From positions 1 to 25,326 of the forward strand of contig JAEOTX010000154.1 in NCBI GenBank assembly GCA_016839605.1: DNA of 25,326 nucleotides. Reading direction: 5' to 3'. Position 1 is the stretch's first letter, and the number at the start of each line of letters is the position of its first letter. The DNA comes from Candidatus Thorarchaeota archaeon (GTDB taxonomy: Archaea > Asgardarchaeota > Thorarchaeia > Thorarchaeales > Thorarchaeaceae). Positions 1,316-21,755 of the stretch are shown piece by piece. Position numbers and translations under genes: made by a program. The notes below the pieces were generated by a model. That model saw nothing but the letters and a program-made list of their open reading frames with translations. It was not told the DNA's origin and searched no databases.

Positions 1316-1410
1316 ATCTACGTAAAGACAATCCTGCTCGCTCTATTTGGAAAATCAGTTTTGTGAAGAATGATACAATAAGTTTGATTAACTGCCTCCA
1401 CTCTTCATAA

Positions 1411-2793: not shown

Positions 2794-2828
2794 TCATGTG
2801 GACACTCTGATACACAGCGCTAGGCTTA

Positions 2829-2915
2829 GAATTCTCAAACCCAATGAAACAGGTACGACACGGAAATCCTGGGATAGGCGCTACAAAAAGCAGCGCTTAC
2901 GTGCCTCTGAAGTAG
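2829..2915 (+). repeat. rps19 3'-end repeat, copy 1 (intact)
   Basis: Encodes [28 protein letters not shown]. From ATG to stop it has 9 substitutions versus copy 0, all silent. Confidence 0.97.
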
Positions 2916-2940
2916 TTCAAGGTGTATAGATCACGCCTTG

Positions 2941-3936
2941 CTAATACTGTTTCAGTTGCCTACCTATCAAGACAATTGAAACAGCTGCTAAAGCCCAGAG
3001 TATTGCTATTGCTAGAACTTCATTTGGCAAAGGTGTACCGAGCCCTGTTGGTAAAATCGTTTCTGTTATCGAAGGACCCACAAACCACTCAGGATCAGTC
3101 AAAGCACCCACAAAATCAGTCGAAGGACCCACACTATCAGTTGGCACTCCAGTAGGTAGCGCGTCCACCACATGCACTGTAACTGTATCCATTTCTTGAC
3201 TCCAGCCACCATCTATAGTCAGTCGATAGACATGCTCTCCAAGTTCGAGACCATCCACATTGATGGTAAGCGCCTGATTCCATATCCAATTGTGTTGTTC
3301 AAGAAGAAGGCCATCCTTCAATAATACATACCGAAATCCATGGGACGCAGTAGCCCAAGTCACTTCGTGACCAGTTGTCCCGAGTAGGTACCAAAGGTCG
3401 GGAGTGTCGTATAACTGGGGATCACCATCTACAGTCAATACAGTTCCGCCCATTCCAAACTCCAATAAGGGGGACTGAGCAACATTCCCCAACGTGTCAG
3501 TTGCCACATAGAATACCTGGCGAAATGTATCATATACTCTCCCTCCTGTGGAGTTATAGGAAAACCCGAGATTCGCTGCGAACAAGTCCGCTCTGTCTTC
3601 AGTTTGAACCATTGTAGTCTGATCCCATACACTGCTCCCGCGATCAGCATAATGCATTATCACAGAGGCAATTCCATCAGGATCCTTAGCCAGTACCTTC
3701 ACCTCCAGATTGTAATTGTATCTTTCCGCAGCATAATATTTCCGAGGGTAGTATTCCATGGTTGGGTTGCTTCCTTCTCCAGGAACATCCGATTCGTCAG
3801 CAATTGTCAGTGTTGCATTGGAATACTCGGCTGATTCTTGATTTGTTGCAACTGTTTTCATAGATGGAAGGCTAGAGGTTATTACAATGACATGGAGAAT
3901 TAGAAGGAGTGCAGCACCTCTGGTGGTGATTTTCAT
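2941..3936 (-). CDS. Secreted, membrane-anchored hypothetical protein (cassette 2); paralog of 15979-16908
   Basis: Signal peptide after ATG 3936 (the ORF extends to 3960) and a C-terminal TM helix. Shares IADESD.PGEGSNPTMEYYPRKYYAA and LYDTPDLWYL.G.TGHEVTW with the 15979-16908 product. Confidence 0.85.
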   Translation of the reverse strand: MKITTRGAALLLILHVIVITSSLPSMKTVATNQESAEYSNATLTIADESDVPGEGSNPTMEYYPRKYYAAERYNYNLEVKVLAKDPDGIASVIMHYADRGSSVWDQTTMVQTEDRADLFAANLGFSYNSTGGRVYDTFRQVFYVATDTLGNVAQSPLLEFGMGGTVLTVDGDPQLYDTPDLWYLLGTTGHEVTWATASHGFRYVLLKDGLLLEQHNWIWNQALTINVDGLELGEHVYRLTIDGGWSQEMDTVTVHVVDALPTGVPTDSVGPSTDFVGALTDPEWFVGPSITETILPTGLGTPLPNEVLAIAILWALAAVSIVLIGRQLKQY

Positions 3937-4032
3937 TCTTAATGTACCCTCCACACCCATCGAATAGGGTACTATTGAAATTAAGTTTGCGTTCTTTCAG
4001 CTAAACTGGAATATTGAATGAAGGACATGTGC

Positions 4033-4113
4033 TCAAACCCAATGAAGCAGGTCCGACATGGCAACCCGGGGATAGGTGCAACCAAGAGCAGCGCTTACGT
4101 GCCTCTAAAATAG
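4033..4113 (+). repeat. rps19 3'-end repeat, copy 2 (intact)
   Basis: Encodes [26 protein letters not shown]. From ATG to stop it has 10 substitutions versus copy 0, all silent. Confidence 0.97.
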
Positions 4114-4136
4114 TGAACTGCGCCAGTGCGTGATAG

Positions 4137-4174
4137 GCACCCCTTTCCTTAAATTTGTTTGAAACTAATGTATG
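4137..4174 (+). promoter_or_regulatory. Putative promoter module shared with 9078-9115
   Basis: gcacccctttccttaaatttgtttgaaactaatgtatg, 30/38 identical to 9078-9115. Contains a TATA-like TTAAAT about 60 nt before the start codon. Confidence 0.5.
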
Positions 4175-4193
4175 GATTGTTTGAAGCAATTCA

Positions 4194-4982
4194 TTGAGGG
4201 GAACCGGTAACTTGTCAAAGGAGTATATAGTTGAAACAAAAAACCTGTCAAAGTCATTTGGAAACATAAGAGCGCTTGATTCAGTCAATTTGTCGATAAA
4301 GGAAGGTAGTAGGTATGGTTACTTAGGTCCAAACGGCGCAGGCAAAACAACCACGATACGAATACTGAGTGGTCTTCTTGAATGCACTAGTGGAGATGCC
4401 ACAGTTTGCGGATATGATATTCATTCTGAGAATAAGATGATCAAACGCCACACAGGTCTTCTTCCTGAAACAGCAGGTCTCTACTCGAAGCTCTCAGCGT
4501 TTGAGTTCCTTGAGTTCATAAGTGCATTATATAGAATGCCATCAGATGAAGCACATTCCAGGATAAGCAAGCTTCTCTCGACACTGGGCTTAGAGAGTAG
4601 GCAGAACGATGCGATAGAAACCTTCAGTTCGGGGATGAAGCAAAAAGTACTCATTGCCTCAACTCTAATCCACGATCCGCAACTTGTCTTTCTCGATGAA
4701 CCTACAGCATATCTTGATCCCGCAATGAGTGTCCTGGTAAAGGACCTTATACTTGCCCTTTCGAAGCAAACTAATACCTCATTCTTCATCTGTACTCATC
4801 AAACAAGCTTTGCGAATGATGTCTGTGATGTCATTGGGATTCTAGATAATGGTAAGCTCTTGATTGAGGGTCCTACACAGGATATTATCAAGAGCTTTGA
4901 TGCTGATAACTTAGAAGATGCATATGTGAAATTGGTTGGAGGAGAGGTAGACAAAGAGCATTTGCTTGATTGGAGGGGCTAG
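4194..4982 (+). CDS. ABC transporter ATP-binding protein (ABC-2/drug-exporter type; cassette 3)
   Basis: Walker A GPNGAGKTT, signature FSSGMKQK, Walker B VFLDEPT, H-loop CTH. The true start may be TTG 4212. Confidence 0.95.
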   Translation: MRGTGNLSKEYIVETKNLSKSFGNIRALDSVNLSIKEGSRYGYLGPNGAGKTTTIRILSGLLECTSGDATVCGYDIHSENKMIKRHTGLLPETAGLYSKLSAFEFLEFISALYRMPSDEAHSRISKLLSTLGLESRQNDAIETFSSGMKQKVLIASTLIHDPQLVFLDEPTAYLDPAMSVLVKDLILALSKQTNTSFFICTHQTSFANDVCDVIGILDNGKLLIEGPTQDIIKSFDADNLEDAYVKLVGGEVDKEHLLDWRG

Positions 4983-6625
4983 CAGGATTGAGCCAGTGGA
5001 AAGCCATCGCCATAGCTGATTTCTATGCAAGTACGACAAGATTCAGAGGGCGCAGAAGGGAGTTCTTCATTATATTTCTCTCAATAGTCCTCATCTGGGC
5101 TTTTGTCATTGTTCCTTTTTTAGTCGGATTCCTTTTTGATAATTATCCTTTCCTTGAAGCTTTGGCCCTCGTTAATCCAATTGGATTAGTGAGAGTAGTT
5201 TTATTGGCAGTCTTATTCATCATCATAACATATCCTTCCTCCTCCGCGCTCCAAGAGTACAAGTTCCGCGATTGGGAACTTATTCTCAGCTGTGATGTAG
5301 ATACGAAACAAATACTCGCGGGAAAATTCATAGGTAAGCTGCCATCCTTCTGTCTGCTTCTACTTGCTTTGCTTCCATTCCTGATTTCGTTCCTCGATGC
5401 AGCATTTCGAATTTCACTCGCAGGCCAGCTATTAATCTATGCAGAGATCACAGCTTTTTCCATCTGCACATATGGATTGTCAATTGTCATTTGGTCGGGG
5501 ATTCAAGCCAGACTCAACCAATCATTACGGGGCGATTTCTATGCTAAGGTCATTTCAGTTGCGCTCATACTACCGGTTGCTTTTGCTTATGGACTAATGG
5601 CTTTCTTAGAGCAACTGACAGGAATAATGGAGAGTGGACTCTTACTTTTACTTCCGTCAACATGGTCTGGTGACCTTGCAGCTTGGATCATCCTTCAAAA
5701 CAATGCGTCGATATCCCCATCCGCGCTCCCGTTAGGTCCTGAGCCTTTGACGATTCTCTTGGGATGTTATGGACTCGGCATCCTATTCATTGGTTTCTTT
5801 TTCACTGATAGAGTATTCACCATTGCATTAGGCGCTAGGCTAGAAAGTCATAAGACAATGGGAAAGGAGAATTTCTTCCTGAGATTCGTTAGAAGGATTT
5901 GGCCTGGCTATTGGGGATCGTTGGTTGCAACGAGTTTCAAACACATCTATAGAAAGCCAGAGAACAATGGGAAGATAGTGTATGCATGTGCGGCATCCAT
6001 TCTGCCCGTACTAATATTCCCAATTCTCGCTATTTCAGCTCCTACAAAGCCACCACCTGACTTTGTCTTATTATTCAGCTTCCTGTCGATGCTTATGGTT
6101 TTCCCGCTAGTAGGCGCGTTAATGTTTGGAGGAATTGGTTTCTTTGAGAACAAGTACCAGCTTTGGGTGATCCAAGATGCTCCGGATGGAGTTAAATTAT
6201 TCACAACAGGTCGCCTTGCTGCTTATGCTGTATCTGCGGCTTTTCTAGCGGCAGTACCCACAATTGGGATTGGTATCTTTTACTCATCTCAACCCTTAGT
6301 TGCGGTCATCCTCTTTGGCTGTGCATTTGCGCTAACAATGGCCGGGACTCTTCAAGGGATGGGCATCGCATCCATCAATCCCGCATATGAAGATGAGATA
6401 TCGCCTCCATTGAACATCTTGGTCACATCAGTTACTGCATGGGGGCTACCATTTGTATTGCTTTTCGTGGGTCTTCCTTCTATCTCTCCAATCATCAACA
6501 CTTATTTCTCCGGCGCTATTGCTTTGCTCTTAAGCATAGTACTCTCGATTATTCTTCCCTTGTTATTAGTAGGCCTTGTTTTATTCTATATAGGCATGAA
6601 GAATCTGATGAGAACGAGCAAGTAA
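4970..6625 (+). CDS. Multi-pass membrane protein, probable ABC exporter permease (cassette 3)
   Basis: 551 aa with many hydrophobic helices; overlaps the ABC ATPase stop codon. Confidence 0.8.
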   Translation: MEGLAGLSQWKAIAIADFYASTTRFRGRRREFFIIFLSIVLIWAFVIVPFLVGFLFDNYPFLEALALVNPIGLVRVVLLAVLFIIITYPSSSALQEYKFRDWELILSCDVDTKQILAGKFIGKLPSFCLLLLALLPFLISFLDAAFRISLAGQLLIYAEITAFSICTYGLSIVIWSGIQARLNQSLRGDFYAKVISVALILPVAFAYGLMAFLEQLTGIMESGLLLLLPSTWSGDLAAWIILQNNASISPSALPLGPEPLTILLGCYGLGILFIGFFFTDRVFTIALGARLESHKTMGKENFFLRFVRRIWPGYWGSLVATSFKHIYRKPENNGKIVYACAASILPVLIFPILAISAPTKPPPDFVLLFSFLSMLMVFPLVGALMFGGIGFFENKYQLWVIQDAPDGVKLFTTGRLAAYAVSAAFLAAVPTIGIGIFYSSQPLVAVILFGCAFALTMAGTLQGMGIASINPAYEDEISPPLNILVTSVTAWGLPFVLLFVGLPSISPIINTYFSGAIALLLSIVLSIILPLLLVGLVLFYIGMKNLMRTSK

Positions 6626-6988
6626 GGATGGAACGAAGCTAGCTCCGAATCCAAGCGGTTTGCAGAACCTAAGGGATGATTGCTCGAATTAGAGGCAATC
6701 CTGCTAAAAGGAGGGAGCAACGTGGAGTCATGTTACCATATGATTGGGCTTTGATATTAAGGTGAAACCCTACCTCGGGTACGACGTGAAATATGGCGTG
6801 AAGTGAAATGAGGAAACGAAAGAGCTGAATGGCCTTTGGTTCTCCGTCTACTCCGCCAGGTACCCAGGCACTTGGTATGTTTGGCTCAAGGAGTCACTCG
6901 ACCAGATTGCGACCCACATCCTTGACAAAGACATACTGAAGTCAAAGACTTAACTATCGTATTTTTTGGGGAGCCTAGTCAAGAACCG

Positions 6989-7004
6989 TTGACCAATTGG
7001 TCAA
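6989..7004. promoter_or_regulatory. Perfect 16-bp palindrome, candidate operator
   Basis: TTGACCAATTGGTCAA is its own reverse complement and lies in a ~600 bp non-coding stretch. Confidence 0.45.
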
Positions 7005-7224
7005 TGACCCTAGGATTATATCCCTTCGCGACATGCTTAGACACATGGAGTCGATGTAATCTCGCAGAAACTTGGAAATTACAATATTGTACTAATTCCT
7101 AGTAAAGTAGGATTACTCTTGTATATCGCCTTGAGAACTTAGCTTTAGATTTCACATGATTGATTATTTGGTCGTACAATAGAACCTATTCCAGACAACC
7201 GAGAGGTTTGATCTCAGTTGTTAG

Positions 7225-7279
7225 TTTTCAAATCCGATGAAACAGGTACGACAAGGCAACCCTGGTATAGGCGCTACCA
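7225..7279 (+). repeat. rps19 3'-end repeat, copy 3 (3'-truncated)
   Basis: Encodes [18 protein letters not shown], then similarity stops about 6 nt before the stop codon of the convergent ORF at 7286. Confidence 0.92.
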
Positions 7280-7285
7280 GCGGGG

Positions 7286-8125
7286 TCACATGTAAGGCAT
7301 GTAATCACGCCGTTTCCCCAATTTCTCTGCAATCAAACCGCCACCTAGCAAAGGTGGGATGATATAAACTGGACCAAAAATCACCAATCGAAGAACTAGA
7401 GGAATTGAGGGAGTAGCTAGCCAGCTCACAAAGGGAACAGCTAGCAAGCCCAGAAGATATACCCAAGCAAGTATGAGTGGCATACTGAAGAAACATCCTA
7501 ATCCTACAATCCAAAACAATCTTCTGAACCTGAAATTATCGAGTCTTCTCCGAACGTAGTAGAAGAAGAATCCAGACATACCAGTGATGATAGTCCAGGT
7601 GATAATCTGTGTGGGTTCCCATACTCCGAGGCTCACCAACACCACACACAGCACAAGCGCAGTGACAAGCGACAAAGAAACTAGCAGAGTCTTCCCTCTA
7701 TTCCACTCAGGGACTGGCAGGCTCTGACCTGACCTATGCTCACGTATCAGGTTTGTGATTCTATATGCTGGGTTAGCCTTGATTTGAATCTCAATAATCT
7801 TAGCTCCTTCAGCGAAATCCTGAACCTCCAAGAGCTCCTTCAATCTTTGTGGAGCTTGATTCCTGCTGAGAGTCCTCCTTTCTATCTCTTCATTAGTGTC
7901 CACAACACACGTTTCAAGTAGGGTAGCAGTTGCTCCAAGAGAGCCCTCCATGAATCCCCCCTCATTGAGATAGTCCCACAACTCCTCTGCAACGCGAGAA
8001 TAGAGTTCTCCGTCCCACGATTGTTTGCTCCACTCTTCCACAAGGGCATATAGCGTTCTCGGGGACTTGCTCATCTTGTGGCTATTCGGGGATTCTTCCG
8101 TTGGGTTCGGTTGTGCATTCTCCAT
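7286..8125 (-). CDS. Hypothetical membrane protein (soluble N-terminal half, ~4 C-terminal TM helices; cassette 4)
   Basis: 279-aa ORF with ATG start and a hydrophobic C-terminal half. Confidence 0.75.
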   Translation of the reverse strand: MENAQPNPTEESPNSHKMSKSPRTLYALVEEWSKQSWDGELYSRVAEELWDYLNEGGFMEGSLGATATLLETCVVDTNEEIERRTLSRNQAPQRLKELLEVQDFAEGAKIIEIQIKANPAYRITNLIREHRSGQSLPVPEWNRGKTLLVSLSLVTALVLCVVLVSLGVWEPTQIITWTIITGMSGFFFYYVRRRLDNFRFRRLFWIVGLGCFFSMPLILAWVYLLGLLAVPFVSWLATPSIPLVLRLVIFGPVYIIPPLLGGGLIAEKLGKRRDYMPYM

Positions 8126-8372
8126 CCTAAGCGCCCAACTACTAACCTCTCTCGATAGACTAATCGTATAGAATACTTTTAAGCTATTTTCTTATTCGAC
8201 AATGACGCATAACATAATTTAGCTTACTCTAGTTGAGTGCTGATTCCGTATCTTCCATGACAGTCATAGGATACACCTTTCACAAATACATAAGTTTTCA
8301 ATTTACACTCATTTGGTAATCACACAAGTGAGTAGGGCTAATTCGATTATGTATTGTGAAGGATATGTGCGC

Positions 8373-8398
8373 GAGCGTGTGACAGGCCCGCAAGCTGG
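8373..8398 (+). repeat. Second repeat family, copy A (ERVTGPQAG-encoding)
   Basis: gagcgtgtgacaggcccgcaagctgg, 22/26 identical to 12651-12676. All 4 mismatches are at third codon positions. Confidence 0.7.
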
Positions 8399-8577
8399 CA
8401 CATTTTTCCTTTCAAGAAGGATATCATTCTTTGTCGCCTATGATAAGAGATACAATGACTCACGCTCACCGAGTGCAGGATGTTTCGTTGGCGTAAGGCG
8501 TGGCGAAACGCCGTTATACTCTTAAGGAAGTATGATTCACCATAGTTACTTAACTCATTATGTGGGGATTTTAAGAA

Positions 8578-8886
8578 ATGCAGGAACAGATGTTTGTAAT
8601 ACCTATTCCGCCTCTACTTGCTCTTGGGTTTCTGATCGGCATCATATTACTGGTTCTCGGCTATCGAGAGGAATCTGACCTAACGAGACGTCATCATCTA
8701 ATGGGTTCAGGTGTAGTAGTCATAGGCATTATGATTCCAATCACTCCACTTAGCTGGTATGGCTATTGGATAGTGACCAGGGGGCTGGTGCTGGGGCTTG
8801 TTGAAATCGTTATTATTGCTGTTGCCCTGATCGTTGGTATCCTTCTCGTGTACAAAGGTGTCAAGACTTACTCGGGACCTCAATAG
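8578..8886 (+). CDS. Small membrane protein (3 TM; cassette 4)
   Basis: 102 aa with three hydrophobic segments and an ATG start. Confidence 0.75.
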   Translation: MQEQMFVIPIPPLLALGFLIGIILLVLGYREESDLTRRHHLMGSGVVVIGIMIPITPLSWYGYWIVTRGLVLGLVEIVIIAVALIVGILLVYKGVKTYSGPQ

Positions 8887-8952
8887 AATACCCGCGCTCC
8901 TCTGGCAGAGTATTTTCTCAGGCAAGCTGGATTGTTCGCTCAATTATTTAAC

Positions 8953-9036
8953 TTCTCAAATCCTATGAAACAGGTCCGACATGGCAACCCGGGGATAGGT
9001 GCAACAAAAAGCAGCGCTTACGTGCCTCTGAAGTAG
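8953..9036 (+). repeat. rps19 3'-end repeat, copy 4 (intact)
   Basis: Encodes [27 protein letters not shown]. From ATG to stop it has 9 substitutions versus copy 0, all silent. Confidence 0.97.
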
Positions 9037-9077
9037 AATACGGACACTGTAGTTTTCTATTTGAGAAGGGCGCTTAT

Positions 9078-9115
9078 GCACCCTTATTCTTAAATTCGCT
9101 CAGAACTAATGTATG
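9078..9115 (+). promoter_or_regulatory. Putative promoter module shared with 4137-4174
   Basis: gcacccttattcttaaattcgctcagaactaatgtatg; TTAAAT lies 60 nt upstream of GTG 9150. Confidence 0.5.
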
Positions 9116-9149
9116 ACGCCTTCAATCTGCTTAACCTGGGAGTGGTTAT

Positions 9150-9884
9150 GTGAAAAGGCGTAAAAAATTTGCAATCGTATATTTAGTCTGTATGCTGGCG
9201 GTTCCTGTTTCTGTTGCAGCGAATAATCAAGGTCTAAGATGGGTGGGAGAAGTTGGAAACCAATTTGAGTTCTCTTTTACACTCATTCGAAATACATCTT
9301 GTTTCTCCCCAGTATTTTGTGAAGAACTGTGCATAGAAAACGAAGCTATGTATATGGAGATAGACTCCCTCTTACCAATACCCGATAACCTTCAATTCTT
9401 TGAAGAGATACCATCACCTGAGGTTTCATTATACTATAAGAATGGCACAATTCTAAGTCTTTCAGATTTCATGATGATGTTTCCCCAGATTGGTAAGCAG
9501 TTCATATTGCCTGTCGGCAACTGGCACCTTCTTACCGCATTGCCATCAAATGCGACCACTACCACAACTACCATCACTACCACTGCAACCACCGGTAACT
9601 TCGAATCGACTCAAATAGACAATTTAACTCATTGGGGTTGGCTATGGTCGTTCTCAGACTCTCAAACCCAGCAGGAAGGAATTCACGCATACTATAAAGC
9701 AGATGGAGTTCTTGGGTACTATACAAGAAGCATTGTTAGTGACACGGAATTAGTGACAATTTCATTCATCCGACTGAATCCACCTGATCCAGTTCCTCCA
9801 GCAATCGGAATCATAGAGCTTGGCATAGTAATTGGGGGAGTGACTGCAGTGGTTGTCATTGTTGTAATGAAAAGAAAGACGTAG
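9150..9884 (+). CDS. Secreted membrane-anchored protein, 'ANNQGL' family paralog 1 (cassette 5)
   Basis: Signal peptide, AANNQGLRWV, YMEIDSLLPIPD, ILPVGNW, a Thr-rich tract and a C-terminal TM with basic tail. Confidence 0.85.
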   Translation: MKRRKKFAIVYLVCMLAVPVSVAANNQGLRWVGEVGNQFEFSFTLIRNTSCFSPVFCEELCIENEAMYMEIDSLLPIPDNLQFFEEIPSPEVSLYYKNGTILSLSDFMMMFPQIGKQFILPVGNWHLLTALPSNATTTTTTITTTATTGNFESTQIDNLTHWGWLWSFSDSQTQQEGIHAYYKADGVLGYYTRSIVSDTELVTISFIRLNPPDPVPPAIGIIELGIVIGGVTAVVVIVVMKRKT

Positions 9885-9917
9885 AGAATTGAATTAAGAA
9901 ACCTCAGTTGACATCAG

Positions 9918-10001
9918 TTTTCAATTCCAATGAAACAGGTACGACATGGCAACCCTGGTATAGGCGCTACAAAAAGCAGCACTTACGTGCCTCTGAAGTA
10001 G
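9918..10001 (+). repeat. rps19 3'-end repeat, copy 5
   Basis: Encodes [27 protein letters not shown] (A>T in the core). Confidence 0.97.
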
Positions 10002-10095
10002 ATCTGCGGGTTTCTTAAGCCCCCCATCTTTTCTCATCAACTGACAAACAGCCTGCCAGCACTCTCTCTCAATACGTTTAATAGATGACTATTCT

Positions 10096-10869
10096 GTGCG
10101 CTCCTCGACTTCACATGGAGGGGCAATGATGTTCTGGAACTTGAAATTGAAGACTCTATTGGGATCTTTTTTTATGGTATTCTTTTTGCTTTCACAAGTT
10201 ACTTGTGCGGCAGCCGCAAACAACCAAGGTCTAGAGTGGGGCATCGATGTGAGTGATCGTATCGACTATGATATAGAGATAGAGTTTCGTAATTCGACAC
10301 TAGATTTTGAGATAGATGACGGGATGTATCTGATTATTGATAACCTACCTGTCATCAATGATGACATCATTGGCCTTTCGGAGTTGTGCCTTCCAACGAT
10401 GGTTTTGAACCACTACACGACATATTGGGAGAATGAAACTCCCATGGACTTTTTCTGGGAGAGATATGTGAATATGGAACCGGTGGATATACTTCCCATT
10501 GGTAACTGGACTCTGATGACTCAACTGTTGGAAGACGCCACACCGACAGCGGATATGACCCAAAATTCTTCGACCTTGAGTTTCACAGTCTTGAACCTAC
10601 CAAACCCAGGCAATGAACTGACTACGATCTTTTCGAAGACCGATGGTATGCCTGTATATCATCTTTACAACGTAACATGGGGAATGGACACAACTATCGT
10701 AGTAGAGCTAGAGAGAATTCTTCCGTCAACAACCAGCTCCATTCCAGTAACTACCTCTGGTTCAACGAGCGCTCCACCACCTGGCAATAACACTATCCCC
10801 ATGACACTAGGAGCTATTGCTGTAGCTGTAGTAGTCATTCTGATGTTGGTCTTTCTACGTAGAGGATAG
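10096..10869 (+). CDS. Secreted membrane-anchored protein, 'ANNQGL' family paralog 2 (cassette 6)
   Basis: AANNQGLEWGI, YLIIDNLPVIND, ILPIGNW, a Ser/Thr/Pro linker and a C-terminal TM. The true start is probably the downstream ATG (~10126) after GGAGG. Confidence 0.85.
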   Translation: MRSSTSHGGAMMFWNLKLKTLLGSFFMVFFLLSQVTCAAAANNQGLEWGIDVSDRIDYDIEIEFRNSTLDFEIDDGMYLIIDNLPVINDDIIGLSELCLPTMVLNHYTTYWENETPMDFFWERYVNMEPVDILPIGNWTLMTQLLEDATPTADMTQNSSTLSFTVLNLPNPGNELTTIFSKTDGMPVYHLYNVTWGMDTTIVVELERILPSTTSSIPVTTSGSTSAPPPGNNTIPMTLGAIAVAVVVILMLVFLRRG

Positions 10870-10932
10870 ATACCACACGGCAACCCGGGGATAGGTGCAA
10901 CGAAAAGCAGTGCTTACGTGCCTCTGAAGTAG
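10867..10932 (+). repeat. rps19 3'-end repeat, copy 6 (5'-truncated)
   Basis: tag ata cca cac ggc aac ccg ggg ata ggt gca acg aaa agc agt gct tac gtg cct ctg aag tag. [18 protein letters not shown] is intact and abuts the stop of the upstream ORF. Confidence 0.95.
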
Positions 10933-11086
10933 ATTTACTGGTTTCTTAGTTTTTTTGATGAAAAGGGGCTTTATGAACGTTCGAGCACAGGATGTTCCGC
11001 GAAGCCCTCCTTCAAGCTTCTATTTCTGTTAACGAAGAACCTGCTTGAAATATCGGATTCTGTAGAATGTGAGCGCAAAATTTGGT

Positions 11087-11779
11087 TTATTCTCTTCTGA
11101 GTACTGCCAGCACCATTAGAATTACTACAGTGCCGGCCATGACCATTCCTGCAATTCCTAGTGGTGAATCAAATGGGAATGGCAAAGTTACTCTTTCAAC
11201 CAGTGAAATCCTGCGTAGGCCATCATAATACTCTCTAACGATCCTTATGTAAGATGTATGAAGTACTCCCGTTGTCCTCACGTAGATATCTGCGAGGGTA
11301 TCTGTTCCTGATTCATGGAAAACCGTGAAATTGTATCCAATGAGGTAAGGTGTGTTGATAATGTCTTGAGTCACGTTTTCCTCAGGTTGATTTGACCACT
11401 GTCCTTCCCAGATATTCACAATAAGGCCCCAGTTGCCAACTGGAAGTACGTCCCAACTAGAAGACCCCTCGATTTCGGTTCCATTTTCATAGAACCGCGA
11501 TGCCCCAACTAAGCGCGAAAGGTTTCTCATTGCGGTGATATCATCTGGGATGCTTGGAAGACTATCGATTATAATGTAGAAATTCTCCTCTCTAGGACTG
11601 GTTTCATTTTGATTTTGTATTGTAAACTCTCCGAAATCGTGATAGTCAAATCTACTCCCGATTGTGACACCCCAATACAGACCCTGATTATTTGCAGCAC
11701 TCACTGGGGTTACAACAATGCACAGAACAAATAGTATAGCCATCAATTGAGAGAATAGACTCTTGGACATATGTCGCAC
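11087..11779 (-). CDS. Secreted membrane-anchored protein, 'ANNQGL' family paralog 3 (cassette 7)
   Basis: AANNQGLYWGV, YIIIDSLPSIPDD, YENGT, VLPVGNW and a C-terminal TM. Confidence 0.85.
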   Translation of the reverse strand: MRHMSKSLFSQLMAILFVLCIVVTPVSAANNQGLYWGVTIGSRFDYHDFGEFTIQNQNETSPREENFYIIIDSLPSIPDDITAMRNLSRLVGASRFYENGTEIEGSSSWDVLPVGNWGLIVNIWEGQWSNQPEENVTQDIINTPYLIGYNFTVFHESGTDTLADIYVRTTGVLHTSYIRIVREYYDGLRRISLVERVTLPFPFDSPLGIAGMVMAGTVVILMVLAVLRRE

Positions 11780-12160
11780 CTCAACTTACGAATCTGTCAA
11801 TGTTCCTCTACCTAGATATTGATGGCTCTCTGAAACTATAAACATTTGTTCCCAATTCGCTTGACAATGGCGACTGCAATGACTGTGTTGTGCAGAGAAA
11901 GGAGGGTGCTGGAACAAGAGAAACCAGCTACTATAGATCTTCACTTAGCTACACAAAGTGATGATTACGGCTTCAAAGGATAAGGATAGAGAGAAAGCGC
12001 TCAGCAGCAGCTGTGAATCCATTAGAATGGATTCCTAACGAGGATGTAACCCTCTACGTAGGATTGTGATGTGTTCTCGTCCAGAAGAATCAACCTTACG
12101 TTGCTCCGATGCCTATTGGTCCAGCTAGTGGTACATTCCTTAATCGCTCAGCAGTCATAA

Positions 12161-12619
12161 ATGCGGATTGCCTTCAATGAGTATTTGAGGGACAATAGAT
12201 TGCCTTGGTGGCCGCAGGTTATTGTAAGACCAAGAGTTCGAATTGTAATGCCCAACCTTGGACTACCCACTTGTCCGCCCAAAGCTGCGGTGTTCAGCGT
12301 TGTAATTCTTGCGGTCCTTTTTGTATTGGGAGGCAACATCTATACACTGATCATGACTCCTCCGCCAATTGCAGGCTTCTCAAATGGATTGCCAAGACTC
12401 TTTGCACCTGGGCTTGATGCCCAGCTCAGCATAGAGGGCATCGTGGCTTCAGTTGTGGCTTTTATTGGTGTTCTGGGACTTAGTCTGATCTACTACTCTT
12501 CTAGATACGTCTTCACCCCTAGCGATGCAACCCGCTTGATGATACTCGGTATGATTCTCACTGGAGTAGCATTCCTCACCTACAGTTACATGTACGCAAT
12601 CAAGATACAAGTGACCTGA
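12161..12619 (+). CDS. OST3/OST6-family oligosaccharyltransferase subunit, OSTC/DC2-like (cassette 7)
   Basis: 152 aa, 3 TM. LFVLGGNIYTLIMTPPPIAG and QLSIEGIVASVVAFIGVLGL match the eukaryotic OSTC/DC2 pattern (GGIIYD.I.EPP..G ... QY..EGL..S..F..G.LG) from recall; no search was run. Confidence 0.75.
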   Translation: MRIAFNEYLRDNRLPWWPQVIVRPRVRIVMPNLGLPTCPPKAAVFSVVILAVLFVLGGNIYTLIMTPPPIAGFSNGLPRLFAPGLDAQLSIEGIVASVVAFIGVLGLSLIYYSSRYVFTPSDATRLMILGMILTGVAFLTYSYMYAIKIQVT

Positions 12620-12650
12620 TCTAAGCTCCTGCAACTCATATGCGCTGCAC

Positions 12651-12689
12651 GAGCGCGTGACAGGACCTCAGGCTGGACCTTACGCCTAG
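12651..12689 (+). repeat. Second repeat family, copy B (ERVTGPQAGPYA*)
   Basis: gag cgc gtg aca gga cct cag gct gga cct tac gcc tag; intergenic; matches 8373-8398. Confidence 0.7.
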
Positions 12690-12787
12690 TGCAGAATCTT
12701 TGTCGTCTTTCTAGTACGTATGTCAGCCCAACGGCTCATTTATCTAAATACGCCTATTGGATTGGCACCGAGGACGGGTTGATTGCA

Positions 12788-13438
12788 ATGACCAGCGATG
12801 ATCTCCACAACGATTTATACGGCGTGAATCCGAGAGTCATAGCTGCGATAATGGGTGTCTTCACACTATTGACACCTTATGGCTATCTGCCTAGTTGGTG
12901 GGCTCTTGGGTACCCTTTTGTATACCCAGAGCCGGGCTTTATATACTCCCTCCTCTGGGCCTTTAGCTCCCGTGCCGGGAGTGTGGGACTTCACAACTAT
13001 GTCGTCTACAACCCTGCTCTCCTTTGGGCCACGCTTCCTCTCAGCATATGCAATGTCATCTTTGCTTTGAAAGTCGTGAGGTACTATCAGGACAGAACCA
13101 GCAAAGACAGCGTCTTAAGATGGGCAATTGTTGCATTTATCGTACCTATCCTTGCTCTGTTTGTCCAGGGGGCAATCTGGATTGTAATCGGAGCACTGTT
13201 CGATCCCACTATAGCGTTTGGAGCAGGTTTTCAGCCATATTTCGGCCCCATTCCAATTCAGATTGCAGTAGGACTATTCATTGTGTACCATATCCCAGCC
13301 CCAGAACTAGTCACTCCATGGACAGCCCCCGAGAGAGATGAATCATGGTGGATAGAAGAAGATATCGAAGAGTCACATTTTGCAGAGCTCTTCATCACAA
13401 TGGAAGAACTCGATGAGATATACAAGATGTGGGACTGA
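12788..13438 (+). CDS. Hypothetical membrane protein with acidic C-terminal tail (cassette 7)
   Basis: Several TM helices. ATG 12788 is preferred over GTG 12689. Confidence 0.75.
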   Translation: MTSDDLHNDLYGVNPRVIAAIMGVFTLLTPYGYLPSWWALGYPFVYPEPGFIYSLLWAFSSRAGSVGLHNYVVYNPALLWATLPLSICNVIFALKVVRYYQDRTSKDSVLRWAIVAFIVPILALFVQGAIWIVIGALFDPTIAFGAGFQPYFGPIPIQIAVGLFIVYHIPAPELVTPWTAPERDESWWIEEDIEESHFAELFITMEELDEIYKMWD

Positions 13439-13485
13439 CTTGTTTTGGAATTGCACAAGCTAGACGGAGCTGTATCGGGTCATTC

Positions 13486-13776
13486 TTACAGCGTTGCTGA
13501 GCCTCCCTCTGGCAAAGAACGAATTTGGATTATGAGGTCTATGGTTTGAATGGTTGTCGAGAGTAGGTAGGTCTCTAGAGTGAGAGGGGAAATATGATAA
13601 AACAGGAATGAAACGGATGGGATTAGAAGCAGGAAGGATGCGAGTTGCCAGAAGATGAAACATGCAATACACGTATAGATTCGGCCTCTCTTGTCCTTTA
13701 CAGCAACTCTACCAATTGCATAGGGGAGGGCCAAAACGAGAATGCTAGGCGGATCGATGATAACGAGGATACTCAA
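13486..13776 (-). CDS. Small hypothetical membrane protein (cassette 7)
   Basis: 96-aa hydrophobic ORF; start uncertain. Confidence 0.45.
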   Translation of the reverse strand: MSILVIIDPPSILVLALPYAIGRVAVKDKRGRIYTCIACFIFWQLASFLLLIPSVSFLFYHISPLTLETYLLSTTIQTIDLIIQIRSLPEGGSATL

Positions 13777-13898
13777 ATCTCAAACCACGTTATGATATAC
13801 ACCTTTTCTCGCCAAATGATTTTCGAATCATGGAATCACACTTCTGTAAGTTTGCAATCATACCGCTATTACTCGTCCTTTTTTGCCACTGTCTAAAG

Positions 13899-13982
13899 TT
13901 TAGCAACCCTATGAAACAGGTACGACACGACAACCCGGGGATAGGTGCAACCTAGAGCAGCGCTTACGTGCCTCTAAAATGA
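13899..13982 (+). repeat. rps19 3'-end repeat, copy 7 (decaying)
   Basis: Encodes [26 protein letters not shown], with G>D and K>TAG. The first Ser is encoded by AGC instead of TCA. Confidence 0.96.
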
Positions 13983-14058
13983 TGTCAAAGCAATAATAGC
14001 CAATATCAATTTGCACCTATGTGGATTTCTTGCAATGTTCCATCTCATTCGAGTTGTT

Positions 14059-14976
14059 TCATTCCCTCTTGAGATAAATCGCAATTCCCAAAGCTAGACA
14101 AATCATGGCAACTAGAGTAGTCACGAGTATTAGGTCATGTCCATTAGCACTTGGGAATGTTGATACTGAACCACTGAGCTTATGCAAAGTTGCCGAACCC
14201 AAACCTTCGCAAGTCCAAAATGCTCCATCAAACCAAGTTAGACCACTACTAGCTCCATCGGTTTCCATAACACCAATTGATTGTAGAGAGTTCCCATAGG
14301 AATCAGCTGCTTCCCACACATGAATTGTATCCAAGGATGTGCCAGGTTTTGAGCAGTAAAGGACTCCACCCACTTCAACGAAATCCTGAATGTTATTAGA
14401 TGGTGGAGGTCTAATATCATTCAAGCGAATCCTGCTAAGGTCATACACATAGAGATTACTGGTTCCGTAGTTTGCAATATAGACTCGCTCTAGCAGAGGA
14501 AGGATGCATATTCCGCCCCAGTGCACATTACCGATGGAGCTGCTGTTAATCCACTCATCAATGAACAAAAGGTCAGTATCATATCGGACAATCTTGGAGG
14601 GGTTATTGGGAACAAGCCCTCTTTCTGAAAGTGGAATCCAAAGAAGACCATCATAGAAGACCATCCCTCCGCAATGATTGAGCGTGTCGTCGCGCACAAG
14701 TACTTCATCAATATAGGTTCCGTTAGGGAATAGTTTGTATAACCAAGCATCGCCGTTGCCGATCACAGTTTCTGCGGTGCTGATGTAAAAATATTCTCCA
14801 TCGGTTGCGAGCCCCTCTACTTCACTGTCGGTAAACCATGTGAGTTCAATTGAGAGATCGATCTCTGCAATGTTATACCCCGCTCTCTGTGACTGCGTCA
14901 TGTGAGTGATGGAATTACCAGCAGGCAAAATCAGCAGCAATCCGAGAACCAATGGTAATGCTAAACAGCGACGCAC
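14059..14976 (-). CDS. Secreted, membrane-anchored putative beta-propeller protein (cassette 8)
   Basis: Signal peptide; repeated blade-like motifs (EGLATDGEYFYIS, GGMVFYDGLLWI, SGLTWFDGAFW); C-terminal TM. Confidence 0.75.
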   Translation of the reverse strand: MRRCLALPLVLGLLLILPAGNSITHMTQSQRAGYNIAEIDLSIELTWFTDSEVEGLATDGEYFYISTAETVIGNGDAWLYKLFPNGTYIDEVLVRDDTLNHCGGMVFYDGLLWIPLSERGLVPNNPSKIVRYDTDLLFIDEWINSSSIGNVHWGGICILPLLERVYIANYGTSNLYVYDLSRIRLNDIRPPPSNNIQDFVEVGGVLYCSKPGTSLDTIHVWEAADSYGNSLQSIGVMETDGASSGLTWFDGAFWTCEGLGSATLHKLSGSVSTFPSANGHDLILVTTLVAMICLALGIAIYLKRE

Positions 14977-15115
14977 TTCTTACAACCAAATGGAGCTCTT
15001 GATTTGATGTTCATAAGCTTTGCCGCGGGCGATACGCAATCTTGCAACACGTGTTCCAAGAGATAACAAGATTAAGGTGATTGGAGAATCTTCACTGGAT
15101 TAGGGAGGATTACAG

Positions 15116-15880
15116 GTGCCAGAGCGGCCAAGCGAGAAGTACTATCGTGATACAGCAAGATTCTATGACGCATTTGTAGAGCGGCCAGATGAAACCCTCT
15201 ACCTAGAGCTTGCAGAAAGATTTGGATCGCCTATCCTAGAGCTTGCTTGCGGAACAGGAAGAATCACACTCATTCTTGCACAAGCAGGCTACGATATCAC
15301 AGGAATTGAGCTCTCTCCCGAGATGCTTGAGATTGCACAGGAAAAACTGCAGCAACTCCCTGACGATGTCCAATCAAGGGTTTCATTGAATCATGGAGAT
15401 ATGACGAATTTCAAGCTAGACAAGAAATTTGCAATGGTCATCATACCATGGTCTTTCAAATTTCTACTAACAACAGAAGATCAACTTGCGTGTCTTAGGC
15501 AAGTTCGAAAACATCTGGCTGATGATGGCGTATTCATTCTTGATCTCTACCCACGCGAGATAATAGATTTAGATGAAACAGAGAGGTACACTGTAGAGAT
15601 TGATGGGGCCACCATTACAAGGACTTACACCTATTCTACTGACATTCTGGCCCAGACAAGACGCTGCGATGCAACTGTAGACGTGGTTCATTCAGATGGC
15701 AAAGCTGAGCGAGTAGAGACTAAATCTGTTGTATCATTGATCATGCCAAGAGAGGCTGAACTTCTTGTTAGAACTGCTGGCTTTGAGATTGTTGAAGAAT
15801 ATGGTGGAAATGACTTCTCAGAATACACGCCTGATGACTCGAAGAGGGTATTAGTTCTCAAGAAGAAGACCGATAGTTGA
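15116..15880 (+). CDS. Class I SAM-dependent methyltransferase (cassette 8)
   Basis: ILELACGTGR motif I, GIELSPEML, GDM, HL..DGVFILD. Confidence 0.93.
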   Translation: MPERPSEKYYRDTARFYDAFVERPDETLYLELAERFGSPILELACGTGRITLILAQAGYDITGIELSPEMLEIAQEKLQQLPDDVQSRVSLNHGDMTNFKLDKKFAMVIIPWSFKFLLTTEDQLACLRQVRKHLADDGVFILDLYPREIIDLDETERYTVEIDGATITRTYTYSTDILAQTRRCDATVDVVHSDGKAERVETKSVVSLIMPREAELLVRTAGFEIVEEYGGNDFSEYTPDDSKRVLVLKKKTDS

Positions 15881-15889
15881 AGCCAGGTT

Positions 15890-15970
15890 GAGTTTCCGTT
15901 GAAACAGGTACAACATGGCAACCTTGGTATAGGCGCAACCAAGAATAGTGCATACGTGCCTCTGAAGTGA
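15890..15970 (+). repeat. rps19 3'-end repeat, copy 8 (most degenerate)
   Basis: Encodes EF--PLKQVQHGNLGIGATKNSAYVPLK*: 4 amino-acid changes plus an apparent 6-nt deletion. Confidence 0.93.
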
Positions 15971-15978
15971 TGAATTTA

Positions 15979-16908
15979 TTATTGTGACTGACGTTTCCAA
16001 TATACTACAATTGACAAGACAGCGACTGCAATGACTGATACAGATATCAACAATGGCAATATCAGGCCATCCTCATGATTTAGTATTGGGTTCCTATTTG
16101 GTCCAACACTACCAGTTGGTACTCCAGCAGGGAGCTCATTCACAACGTGCACGGTTACATTGTCTATACCTGTGCTAAATCCACCATCCACGGATAATCG
16201 ATAGACATGATCCCCCGAGGGGAGGCCGTCCACATTGATAGTCAAAGACCCGACCCATATGTGCTTTTCAAGAATAAGCCCATCCTTCAATAGCGTATAG
16301 TAGAACCCACCGTACACAGTTTCCCAGGTTACTTCATGACCTGTAGACCCCACTAAATACCATAAATCAGGAGTATCGTATAAATCACCATCATAATCAG
16401 CAGTCCATGTTATCTGAGCCAGTCCAAATTCCATAATGGGCGACTGTGCAACGTTTCCGAGTGTGTCATTTGCTATATAATACACCTGGCGATAGGTATC
16501 ATAAAGATACCATCCTGTAGAGTTATAGAAGAATTCGAGTGTGGTTGTGAAAATGTCACCACTGCCAGCACTACGTGTCATCGGAGTCTGATTCCAATCA
16601 CTGCTTCCTCGATTGGCGTAGTACATAATCACCGAGTCAATACCGTCAGGATCCCTTGCCAGGACACTCACAGTAAGAGTGTAGTCGAAGTTGGCAGCAG
16701 CATAATATTTCCGGGGATAGTATTCCATGGTGGGATTGCTACCTTCACCAGGAATGTCAGACTCATCAGCAATCATCCATTTCTCATTATAGAGCTCAGC
16801 TGATTGGCTATCTAACAGCAATTCATTTGATGAAGGGTAATTGGAGCTGATTGCAACAACATGTAGCATTAGAAAGAGGATTAGGACGCTTCTGGCATCA
16901 ACTCTCAT
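15979..16908 (-). CDS. Secreted, membrane-anchored hypothetical protein; paralog of 2941-3936
   Basis: Long shared blocks with the cassette-2 protein; signal peptide and C-terminal TM. Confidence 0.85.
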   Translation of the reverse strand: MRVDARSVLILFLMLHVVAISSNYPSSNELLLDSQSAELYNEKWMIADESDIPGEGSNPTMEYYPRKYYAAANFDYTLTVSVLARDPDGIDSVIMYYANRGSSDWNQTPMTRSAGSGDIFTTTLEFFYNSTGWYLYDTYRQVYYIANDTLGNVAQSPIMEFGLAQITWTADYDGDLYDTPDLWYLVGSTGHEVTWETVYGGFYYTLLKDGLILEKHIWVGSLTINVDGLPSGDHVYRLSVDGGFSTGIDNVTVHVVNELPAGVPTGSVGPNRNPILNHEDGLILPLLISVSVIAVAVLSIVVYWKRQSQ

Positions 16909-20958: not shown

Positions 20959-20973
20959 GCTGATTCCTCCTGG

Positions 20974-21090
20974 TCACCCCATGATGATTATAGCAAGCAT
21001 TCCAACCATGAATATTATGAAGACGATAAATCAAAGACAGGTCCTCGTAGCAGATCGTGGATAGTCATCTTCCTCTCCATAGTCGTACAT
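20974..21090 (-). pseudogene. Small single-TM protein ORF with an in-frame TGA
   Basis: Manual translation MYDYGEEDDYPRSATRTCL*FIVFIIFMVGMLAIIIMG*; the internal TGA is at 21031-21033. Confidence 0.45.
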
Positions 21091-21164
21091 ACTAATCGCC
21101 TGAACTCGTGTGAGATTACTAAGTCATACTCTTCAGTCTATTGTCAGTCACAGACGTTGTATGA

Positions 21165-21692: not shown

Positions 21693-21755
21693 GAGGTATC
21701 CAAGCATCTAATGCAAATCAATAGCTGCAAAGAGGCACAACATGAATTCTGGCAG

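Follow-up and report, generated by a model that had tools for sequence, protein, structure and literature searches.

Repeats homologous to the 3' half of the 5S rRNA gene lie within an rps19-tail cassette array of a Thorarchaeota archaeon

Two short repeats embedded between the cargo genes of an rps19-anchored cassette array in a Candidatus Thorarchaeota archaeon are, by homology to verified genes, 3' halves of the 5S rRNA gene, a segment extending from the helix II/V junction through the terminator. We consider it probable that both copies are cast-off 5S 3' halves, carried into the rps19 array as passengers of 5S-type cassettes. The stretch of DNA analyzed, hereafter the window, spans 25,326 nt (GCA_016839605.1, contig JAEOTX010000154.1, positions 1 to 25,326, forward strand). 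Its genome is labelled G000, with C20, C122, C156, and C39 denoting further contigs of the same genome, and relatives are labelled Gnnn, with their contigs written Gnnn:Cnn. The G000 assembly is 80% complete; it includes neither the genome's 5S gene nor the proximal part of the 5S array, and repeats break the assembly at several contig ends. The host array is anchored at rps19 (uS19; positions 872–1315, + strand; Pfam PF00203, E=6e-30), a gene other than the one that gave rise to the repeat examined here.

Copy A (8373–8398) reads GAG CGT GTG ACA GGC CCG CAA GCT GG and copy B (12651–12676) reads GAG CGC GTG ACA GGA CCT CAG GCT GG, both in the frame ERVTGPQAG. The sequences confirm that the copies agree at 22 of 26 positions, that the four differences all occupy third codon positions in this frame, and that copy B runs on to a stop (...YALHERVTGPQAGPYA*). 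Both copies lie on the + strand between cargo ORFs, copy A inside cassette 4, where the rps19-tail repeats at 7225 and 8953 enclose it, and copy B inside cassette 7, enclosed by those at 10849 and 13899. Considered in isolation, the pair is no more than a borderline match: 60 first-order Markov simulations give an expectation of 0.13 same-strand 26-mer pairs with at least 22 matches per window. It is membership of a family that makes the pair real. A tail profile built from the copies retrieved 17 pieces in the genome with nhmmer, including copy A at E=2e-17 (8345–8418, + strand) and copy B at E=3.4e-6 (12632–12676, + strand). Copy A comprises the helix V/IV arm, the 3' strand of helix I (of the GCTGGC type), and the T-rich terminator of a displaced 5S 3' half, with a small internal deletion; it aligns to positions 69–120 of a full-length 5S profile built from Rfam-verified genes and is 97% identical to C20:10001-10039 across 39 nt. 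Copy B is an older, 5'-truncated, and decayed 5S tail that begins 12 nt past the stop of an OST3/6 gene. Its GNRA tetraloop is altered, 2 nt are missing, and the T-run is absent, but it still aligns to positions 77–115 of the same 5S profile and matches a C20 tail with a BLAST E-value of 4.2e-7.

The original prediction read the two copies as displaced tails of a different host gene absent from the window, and specifically as coding sequence for the C-terminus of a protein whose gene was not seen (…HERVTGPQAGPYA*). The displaced tails of another host gene stand, and the parent is the 5S rRNA gene; the protein-coding parent does not stand. The motif is single-copy in most of the 61 family genomes scanned, 58 of which carry exactly one 5S gene. 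At every conserved motif locus inspected with Rfam (G004, G019, G034, G017, and G026), RF00001 reports a full 120-nt 5S rRNA at 60–71 bits, against a cut-off of 38, with the motif at model positions 63–120. Helix V types covary between genera (TTGCAGG/CCTGCAA, TTGTGGG/CCCACAA, TTGCCGG/CCGGCAA, and others), as does helix I. The fold persists in 13 displaced tails, with pairing in 91% of cells and a GC:5 / AU:3 split at one pair, although covariation among these tails is modest, as 29 of 500 shuffles reach the observed level. RF00001 gave no 5S match on the window, C20, C156, C122, C39, or the excised copies, even with E up to 10 for the excised copies, the window, and C20. Since a half molecule without helices I–III leaves the Rfam search powerless, the identity rests on homology to the Rfam-verified genes. 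ARAGORN found neither tRNA nor tmRNA in the window and the array contigs.

A coding end draws its appeal from the third-position mismatches, which have a probability of 0.0215 of all falling in one codon-position class, and from the stop that closes copy B. Across the family, this synonymous-site argument fails. Other copies read, in the same frame, ERVTGPQAA, ERVAGPQAA, ERVTGLQAA, ERVTSPRAG, EGVTGPQAG, and ERVTGP*AN, the last with a stop inside the motif, and most copies have stops 0–5 codons upstream. These replacements and stops mark the pattern between A and B as a coincidence (p about 0.02). Six-frame and nhmmer scans placed none of the 17 genome copies within a conserved ORF, and the variation tracks RNA pairing rather than codons. 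Together with the Rfam-verified 5S gene at the parent locus of each relative inspected, this leaves the coding reading practically excluded. The original prediction had proposed a TBLASTN search for a conserved gene ending in the peptide and followed by its own repeat-delimited array, and would have yielded had there been neither such a gene nor further copies. Further copies abound, as the 17 pieces attest, and a second array exists, while the peptide-ending gene was not found; the search would have located the array, yet accounted for it wrongly.

As anticipated, then, a second anchor gene has a repeat-delimited array of its own, namely the 5S rRNA gene, on contigs C20 and C122. Eleven of the 17 pieces are on C20, co-oriented and spaced 1–2 kb apart. 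C122 opens with a displaced 5S tail of the type usual in the genus; after it, at the native spacing of 101 nt, comes a 373-aa gene that is the ancestral downstream neighbor of 5S and is 92% identical to that of G002. This native tail with its ancestral flank at the distal end places the array between the 5S gene and the tail that this gene originally had. In G015:C14 and G012:C2, the 5S gene is intact and displaced 5S tails lie downstream of it. In G002, G005, and G011, an intact 5S lacks an adjoining array and displaced tails lie on other contigs, an arrangement for which strain mixing within metagenome bins or relocation of arrays may be responsible. The 5' edge of the tails is sharp, within about 2 nt. 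Helix I types GCTGGC and GCTGCC coexist in one array, and one G005:C50 tail joins helix V strands of two types, the only clear case of a mosaic tail.

Cassette 4 opens with an rps19-tail repeat (7225–7279, + strand), found by repeat search and matching nhmmer model positions 1–55 only; it stops after 55 nt and is fused directly to a cargo module whose homology to G092:C231 starts at 7285. This module holds a 279-aa gene (7286–8125, - strand; ORF list) with four membrane helices predicted from hydropathy and 80% nucleotide identity to G092:C231, for which no Pfam, PHROG, or NCBIfam match was obtained. The end of tail A and about 100 nt of post-tail leader (8379–8510, + strand) are 79% identical to C20:8374-8505, which begins in a partial 5S tail; the shared leader lies past the transcribed 5S and shows that the duplication took place at the DNA level. 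Downstream of tail A, a 102-aa gene with three membrane helices by hydropathy (8578–8886, + strand; ORF list) has homologues in at least 10 genomes, and the one on G011:C26 adjoins a 5S tail in the opposite orientation. The cassette closes with the rps19 tail at 8953–9043 (+ strand; repeat search and nhmmer). A 1412-nt contig from a different sample of the same study spans 7580–8991 without any difference from the window, so the context of copy A is not an assembly artefact.

Cassette 7 begins with an rps19 tail (10849–10939, + strand; repeat search, with nhmmer matching 10875–10933) whose 5' part, the first 25 nt or so, has been overwritten. Module X follows (10997–11863, + strand), comprising a 230-aa surface protein gene on the - strand and its promoter side. 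It is 87% identical to C20:5070-5942, which sits between two 5S tails, and 79% identical to G005:C50:15959-16818, directly after a 5S tail. The cargo gene immediately upstream of tail B (12161–12619, + strand; Pfam PF04756) belongs to the OST3/OST6 family, and its homologue G015:C96:3486-3971 has a 5S tail on either side. Downstream of tail B, module Y (12723–13446, + strand) carries a 249-aa membrane protein gene and is 83% identical, inverted, to C20:13386-12664, between 5S tails at 12540 and 13455. Module Z (13513–13836, + strand) is 69.5% identical to C20:7606-7929; the C20 counterpart ends at the 5S tail at 7937, and the window module ends before the rps19 tail at 13899–13989 (+ strand; repeat search and nhmmer) that closes the cassette. 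No independent contig bridges the context of copy B among the contigs listed. Apparent joints 8404>12640 and 11863>8368 proved to be cross-mapping of C156 and C20 tails, not rearrangements. Ten ORFs without a Pfam match also returned nothing from PHROGs and NCBIfam, and by hydropathy the Pfam-less ORFs appear to encode signal/anchor or multi-pass membrane proteins. A search for a third anchor type, comparing positions 1316–15980 with five array-poor genomes, matched only rps19, 5S, and cargo paralogues.

With 5S tails inside the rps19 array, the two arrays share material, and the suggestion that cassettes move between arrays is borne out to that extent: the modules beside copies A and B recur between 5S tails, both on C20 and in congeners. 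The reverse case occurs in G015:C14, where an rps19 tail (the last 26 codons only) lies between the intact 5S and a displaced 5S tail. Some cargo modules are inverted relative to the tails, and no common core or motif was seen between 5S and rps19 tails. The mixing between 5S and rps19 arrays is what is new here; the literature searched held no description of 5S- or rps19-anchored cassette arrays in Asgard archaea and no mention of the 5S gene as an integration target. An artefact, whether a chance match, an assembly chimera of the two arrays, or insertion of RNA-derived 5S pseudogenes, might be entertained because of the chance expectation for the bare pair and the assembly breaks at repeats, but it is very improbable. 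Chance is at odds with the profile E-values of both copies, a chimera with the independent contig that spans copy A and both its flanks and with the reciprocal G015 case from a different assembly, and an RNA copy could not include the 100 nt of untranscribed leader that copy A has in common with a C20 cassette.

The arrays contain no recognizable recombinase genes. No integrase, Cas1, IS110, or free-standing LAGLIDADG gene was found at the rps19 and 5S arrays studied, no recombinase or nuclease domain in ORFs of the window, C20, C156, G015:C14, and nine rps19 arrays of relatives, and no IntI-type tyrosine recombinase in ORFs of the window, C20, C156, G015:C14, and G012:C2. The first cassettes after rps19 (G009, G016, G014, and G091) and after 5S (G015 and G012) encode no nuclease domain. 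At the level of the assembly (80% complete), G000 has no match to PF00589, PF01548, or PF01867 and lacks Cas1, and its only LAGLIDADG_3 match is of the intein type. When 86 genomes were scanned for LAGLIDADG_3, not one of the 30 best loci adjoined a 5S or rps19 tail. The only enzyme encountered close to a 5S gene was an IS110 transposase in G012, which is frameshifted; IS110 was rejected as a driver, being sporadic (13 of 86 family genomes, 1 of 16 congeners) and, G012 aside, never located next to tails. For the TnpB encoded in the window (22235–23491, - strand), one of ten TnpB loci, considered as an RNA-guided driver, no guide-like match was detected: no word of at least 11 nt from 20900–23700 occurs in any of the 5S or rps19 tails. 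The unassembled 5S gene region and proximal array end of G000 leave room for an enzyme gene.

How the DNA moves we infer from these arrangements. In this genome and in congeners, DNA would repeatedly enter the one 5S gene, always at the same point, the helix II/helix V junction just before CGTTG, each insertion delivering a replacement 3' half with its terminator and one to a few cargo genes. The previous 3' half would be displaced downstream each time, building a co-oriented array such as those on C20 and C122, and rps19 would undergo the same process. Copies A and B would then be pieces of 5S-type cassettes (tail, leader, and cargo) that ended up between rps19 tails. As the mechanism, we prefer host homologous recombination acting on tail-bearing DNA, to which we give somewhat less than an even chance: a cassette flanked by two direct tails would loop out and then re-enter via the conserved gene tail, exchange between arrays would proceed via shared or paralogous cargo or imprecise joins, and a nuclease or recombinase encoded elsewhere may trigger such events. 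The cut tails at 7225 and 10849, the inverted modules, and the G005:C50 mosaic are more readily explained by general recombination than by an exact, site-specific reaction. A site-specific enzyme, however, would produce just such a sharp 5' edge as the tails show, whereas homologous recombination needs it to be inherited from a founder element.

That edge also speaks for integrase-type integrative elements resembling tycheposons, in which a site-specific recombinase (tyrosine, serine, or other) would target a core in the 5S 3' half, such as the helix IV hairpin, and another in the rps19 tail; the small cassettes would be remnants of degraded elements, and mixed tails would arise via composite elements or excision with neighboring DNA. 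The invariant hairpin, with its 5-bp inverted arms, does resemble a recombinase core, and the oldest tail is distal, matching the published additive-island model at tRNA genes, where enzyme-bearing elements are also rare and transient (bioRxiv 10.1101/2020.12.28.424599). We nonetheless consider this origin unlikely, even with the proximal array end of G000 unassembled, given the lack of any PF00589 match in G000, of a recombinase domain beside intact 5S genes (G015, and G012 with only its broken IS110) or in the nine rps19 arrays, and of a core common to 5S and rps19 tails, together with the truncated tails and inverted modules. Tail replacement driven by a homing nuclease, which would cut the 5S or rps19 tail and have repair copy a donor with a resistant tail plus cargo, nuclease-free cassettes hitch-hiking, is a distinctly unlikely source. 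It would account for the foreign helix I types within one array, and the hallmark of WHO elements is an array of 3' ends displaced from a single essential gene (PMC7282813), but the absence of LAGLIDADG_3 loci beside tails among the 30 best, the intein-type match as the only one in G000, and the nuclease-free first cassettes after rps19 and 5S stand against it.

Known systems resemble these arrays in part. Integrons likewise form co-oriented arrays of small, mostly single-gene cassettes with structured repeats of about 60–90 nt, polarity from one end, and cassettes common to several arrays. Here, by contrast, there is no IntI-type integrase and no attI, junctions are partly imprecise, and the boundaries are once-functional essential gene ends (5S and rps19), not attC sites. 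The mobile ORFs of Allomyces atp6, in fungal mitochondria, carry a replacement C-terminal end and displace the old one, but these are single insertions with an endonuclease ORF in an organelle rather than multi-cassette arrays. The WHO arrays of yeasts consist of the endonuclease genes themselves. At FBA1 of Torulaspora and Lachancea, 3'-end fragments of one essential gene lie amid inserted genes in tandem arrays (PMC7282813). The host gene is kept intact by a replacement end. The present case differs in its archaeal host, RNA-gene target, and unrelated accessory cargo, with no nuclease found in the arrays scanned nor, among the 30 best LAGLIDADG_3 loci of 86 genomes, beside a tail. In Prochlorococcus, tycheposons are integrative elements that build additive islands at tRNA and tmRNA genes (bioRxiv 10.1101/2020.12.28.424599). 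As in such islands, insertion falls within the 3' portion of a structured RNA gene, which the arriving copy restores, partial gene copies lie between successive insertions and scattered through the island, and newcomers push older insertions away from the gene. The target differs, being the 5S rRNA gene (and rps19), the units measure 1–3 kb and hold between one and three genes for surface or membrane proteins, neither the arrays nor the assembled genome (80% complete) has a detectable integrase, and the tails of two anchor genes are mixed in one array. Direct repeats corresponding to the 3' part of a restored target, as expected of an integrative element, are found at G015:C14, G012:C2, and the distal native tail of G000; a recombinase within the element was not found in the ORFs of the arrays scanned, apart from the frameshifted IS110 of G012.

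The analysis corrects a tempting error, in which synonymous-looking differences are read as coding sequence, and names the actual parent gene. It links two arrays of one genome into a single system, in that the same cargo occurs behind 5S tails and rps19 tails and tails belonging to one anchor make their way into the other anchor's array. More tentatively, Thorarchaeia may possess an integrase-free network of gene-tail integrons, a possible but rather doubtful generalization in which essential gene ends (5S rRNA, rps19, and possibly others) would serve as interchangeable cassette boundaries, and surface-protein cassettes would enter by recombining with the conserved end of a gene and flow between anchor loci and species without an element-encoded enzyme. 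Should an enzyme take part after all, it lies outside every family scanned for here and would be worth identifying. Without a dedicated enzyme, archaea near the eukaryotic stem would have a simple route by which to gather and shuffle surface-protein genes, one that would need only the conservation of essential gene ends.

The repeat that contains both window copies is identified by its sequence as the displaced 3′ half of a 5S rRNA gene. The assembly of G000, the window's genome (259 contigs, 3.08 Mb, 80% complete), was searched in six frames and with a nucleotide profile. The profile recovered 17 pieces of a ~75-nt unit: eleven are co-oriented on contig C20 at a spacing of 1–2 kb, and the others lie on contigs C122, C125, C156, and C39, with two in the window, copy A (8373–8398, profile match 8345–8418, + strand) and copy B (12651–12676, profile match 12632–12676, + strand). 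Across 61 relatives searched, the repeat sequence is single-copy in most genomes, and at all five loci inspected Rfam recognises a full-length 5S rRNA (60–71 bits, cut-off 38), of which this copy forms the 3′ half; when the family was scanned for 5S genes, 58 of 61 genomes had exactly one. The repeat begins 1–3 nt ahead of CGTTG, at the junction of helices II and V, spans the entire helix V/loop E/helix IV arm and the 3′ strand of helix I, and ends ~15 nt inside the T-rich terminator. Helix V and helix I display compensatory changes between genera. In 13 displaced tails, 91% of cells are still paired, with a GC/AU exchange at one pair, and the pairing excess over shuffles is modest with so few sequences. 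Half molecules receive no score from the Rfam model.

The original prediction had taken the repeat for the C-terminal tail of a protein gene. The underlying observations are correct: the 26-nt copies A and B agree at 22 of 26 positions, all four mismatches fall at third positions of the frame ERVTGPQAG, and the frame of copy B runs on to PYA and a stop. Both copies lie on the + strand, flanked by cargo ORFs, inside the rps19 array, in cassette 4 (between rps19 tails at 7225 and 8953) and cassette 7 (between those at 10849 and 13899); the 91-nt repeat of this array, present nine times, is the 3′ end of the rps19 gene (872–1315, Pfam Ribosomal_S19). Taken as a bare pair, the A/B match is only suggestive; simulation with the window's length and dinucleotide composition gives 0.13 such pairs per window, and the probability of four mismatches in one codon-position class is 0.0215. 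Other repeat copies read ERVTGPQAA, ERVAGPQAA, ERVTGLQAA, ERVTSPRAG, EGVTGPQAG, and ERVTGP*AN in this frame, most have an upstream stop within five codons, and no downstream stop is common to the copies, so coding constraint is not visible. As the repeat is a 5S rRNA 3′ half, the third-position pattern is coincidental. Copy B is more decayed than copy A, with a changed tetraloop, a 2-nt deletion, a 5′ truncation, and loss of the T-run. The protein-tail reading is thus withdrawn, the parent being 5S rRNA and the frame containing replacements and stops. The six-frame search of the whole assembly for the peptide led to a second array but to no peptide-coding parent, the repeat being 5S rRNA.

The prediction that the displaced tails belong to a second anchor gene with its own array holds for the 5S rRNA gene, and the array is represented on C20 and C122. 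The 5S gene of G000 itself is absent from the 80% complete assembly. At the start of C122 lies non-5S sequence; next come a displaced tail whose type matches exactly that of the intact genes of six congeners, the native 101-nt spacer, and a 373-aa gene 92% identical to the 5S-downstream gene of G002. A gene of this type follows 5S in four relatives (G002, G004, G005, and G011), and on C122 the two usual neighbours come next. The tail type, native spacer, and ancestral neighbours show that insertions of DNA have driven the original tail away from its gene, so that it now lies at the array's distal end. C20 breaks off within a tail at the contig end and represents an inner part of the same array or of a similar one. 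Its tails are of several types: some carry GCTGCC in helix I, as do most congeners, and others GCTGGC, the partner of a GATGCC 5′ end like the one in the relative G012. The tails therefore derive from different 5S alleles. Other species share the layout: in G015:C14 and G012:C2, displaced tails lie downstream of an intact 5S gene.

Several further features of the 5S genes and their surroundings were recorded. Three 5S genes are long, 150–152 nt (G012:C2, locus L078, 9257–9408; G003:C15:39893–40044; G023:C16:65988–66137). That of G012, the only long one read, has a ~32-nt insertion after the conserved GAAGTTAA region, which may be a 5S expansion segment, and scores below or near the Rfam cut-off. 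An inverted 5S-tail fragment of ~35 nt lies 60–130 nt upstream of the intact 5S gene in G009, G002, and G011 (L016 1310–1341, L017 1344–1378, and L018 1344–1378, all − strand), and in G015:C14 the ancestral upstream neighbours (295-, 149-, and 642-aa genes) are inverted beyond the array; this suggests an inversion between tail copies. A complete, well-paired tail of the GCTGGC type (TTGCGGG/CCCGCAA) stands alone at 11182–11268 of the 28.6-kb contig C156 (L002), among ArsR-type, CMD, HD-associated, and flavoprotein genes; tails of 5S are thus not confined to recognisable arrays.

Exchange of cassettes between arrays, also foreseen, is borne out by the DNA around copies A and B, which recurs in 5S arrays. 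Module X (10997–11863) is 87% identical to C20:5070–5942, a segment between two 5S tails, and is preceded by a 5S tail in G005:C50. The OST3/6 gene directly upstream of copy B has 5S tails on both sides in G015:C96. Module Y (12723–13446) adjoins copy B on its downstream side and shares 83% identity with a C20 segment that lies inverted between two tails, and module Z (13513–13836) corresponds to the C20 segment ending at tail 7937. Given this recurrence, cassette 7 has the look of three or four units once of 5S type, of whose tails a single decayed one remains. Copy A has ~100 nt of post-tail leader in common with C20:8374–8505, and cassette 4 contains an rps19-type unit followed by one 5S-type unit (tail A, leader, and a 102-aa gene). 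The reciprocal case is found in G015:C14, where an rps19 tail (last 26 codons only) sits between the intact 5S gene and a displaced 5S tail. Mixing is occasional, since G000 has no rps19 tails outside contig C84 and none of nine fetched rps19 arrays of relatives contains a 5S tail. For copy A, an independent contig from another sample, identical to the window over 7580–8991, and the shared untranscribed leader exclude both chimeric assembly and an RNA-derived origin. Contig pieces free of differences from window 7200–14000 also occur in soil (2025) and sediment (2023) metagenome runs of other studies; this strain, or one nearly identical to it, therefore exists outside the source study.

A third repeat, ~180 nt long, accompanies 5S-tail arrays. 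It lies at 1913–2091 of C20 (L001), 214–345 (−) of C39, 15631–15729 and 17096–17276 of G005:C50 (L079), 5193–5323, 10561–10760, and 11887–12050 of G009:C72 (L083), and 472–568 of G015:C96 (L082). In G005:C50 it brackets the unit of 5S tail and module X. The closed genome of G004, which has no 5S array, and two genomes of another genus lack this repeat, so no universal gene ends in it. Its reverse strand starts with ATG and an open reading frame, and the C20 copy is upstream of a PadR-like gene. In the window, two paralogous surface-protein genes (~71% nucleotide identity, signal peptide and C-terminal anchor) lie in cassette 2 (2941–3960, −) and just past the last rps19 tail (15979–16908, −), the latter adjoining a 444-aa beta-helix-like surface protein. 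At 266–1315, rps19 has a TPR-protein gene upstream and the array downstream, with no flanking ribosomal protein genes within the window.

How the tails were multiplied was considered in the light of their edges and of the enzymes encoded nearby. Host functions would drive recombination through the conserved gene tail, an explanation to which we give slightly less than an even chance. Of the rps19 tail at 7225 only the first 55 nt are left, and at that point the homology of the adjoining cargo module to another genus begins; that at 10849 is without its first ~25 nt; some modules run with the tails and others against them; and in one G005:C50 tail the two helix V strands are of different types and unable to pair. 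Because of these cut tails, mixed orientations, and the mosaic tail, general recombination is favoured over exact site-specific recombination. The same features count against an unrecognised or unassembled site-specific recombinase, which we consider unlikely, although it would readily explain the sharp 5′ edge of intact tails; host recombination can account for that edge only by descent from a founder element. The array's proximal end, where such an enzyme would be expected, is missing from the G000 assembly, which weighs for the recombinase and against host recombination. The 80% complete assembly has no match to IS110 DEDD transposase or Cas1, and its 3.08 Mb yielded none to Phage_integrase, the tyrosine recombinase family PF00589, at E up to 0.001, so not even an Xer-type gene was found.

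ORFs of the window, C20, and C156 and those beside the intact 5S genes of G015 and G012 encode TPR, HEAT, LRR, MFS, ABC, NosD-like, methyltransferase, and PadR proteins, the remainder being membrane or surface proteins of unknown family. The sole exception is a frameshifted IS110 (DEDD_Tnp_IS110 and Transposase_20; L078, 7135–8412) in G012, with the intact 5S gene on one side and a displaced 5S tail, in inverted orientation, on the other. Enzymes of the IS110 family are guided by RNA. As a general driver IS110 was rejected, being sporadic in the family and beside tails only in G012. An intact TnpB (22235–23491, −; HTH_OrfB_IS605, OrfB_IS605, and Cas12f1-like TNB domains) lies 6 kb past the last rps19 tail of the window, and no guide-like match of it to any tail was found. 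TnpB-type matches in G000 number ten; one of them, decayed, is on C156, ~6 kb from the lone 5S tail. A homing nuclease is a rather improbable driver: the best 30 LAGLIDADG_3 loci of the family include none adjoining 5S or rps19, and the first cassettes after rps19 in four relatives are without a nuclease domain. Other or mixed mechanisms make up the rest.

No description of 5S/rps19 cassette arrays in Asgard archaea was found in the literature searched. In the additive-island model of tRNA-targeting elements, partial tRNA copies separate successive insertions and older material is pushed distally (bioRxiv 10.1101/2020.12.28.424599). The 5S/rps19 arrays are alike in layout both to these islands and to the WHO elements at yeast FBA1 (PMC7282813). 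They differ in that the targets are 5S rRNA and a ribosomal protein gene, the cassettes are small and no enzyme was found in them, and tails of two anchors are mixed. The resemblance to an integron is in outline only. The feature is tail-duplicating insertion at conserved genes.
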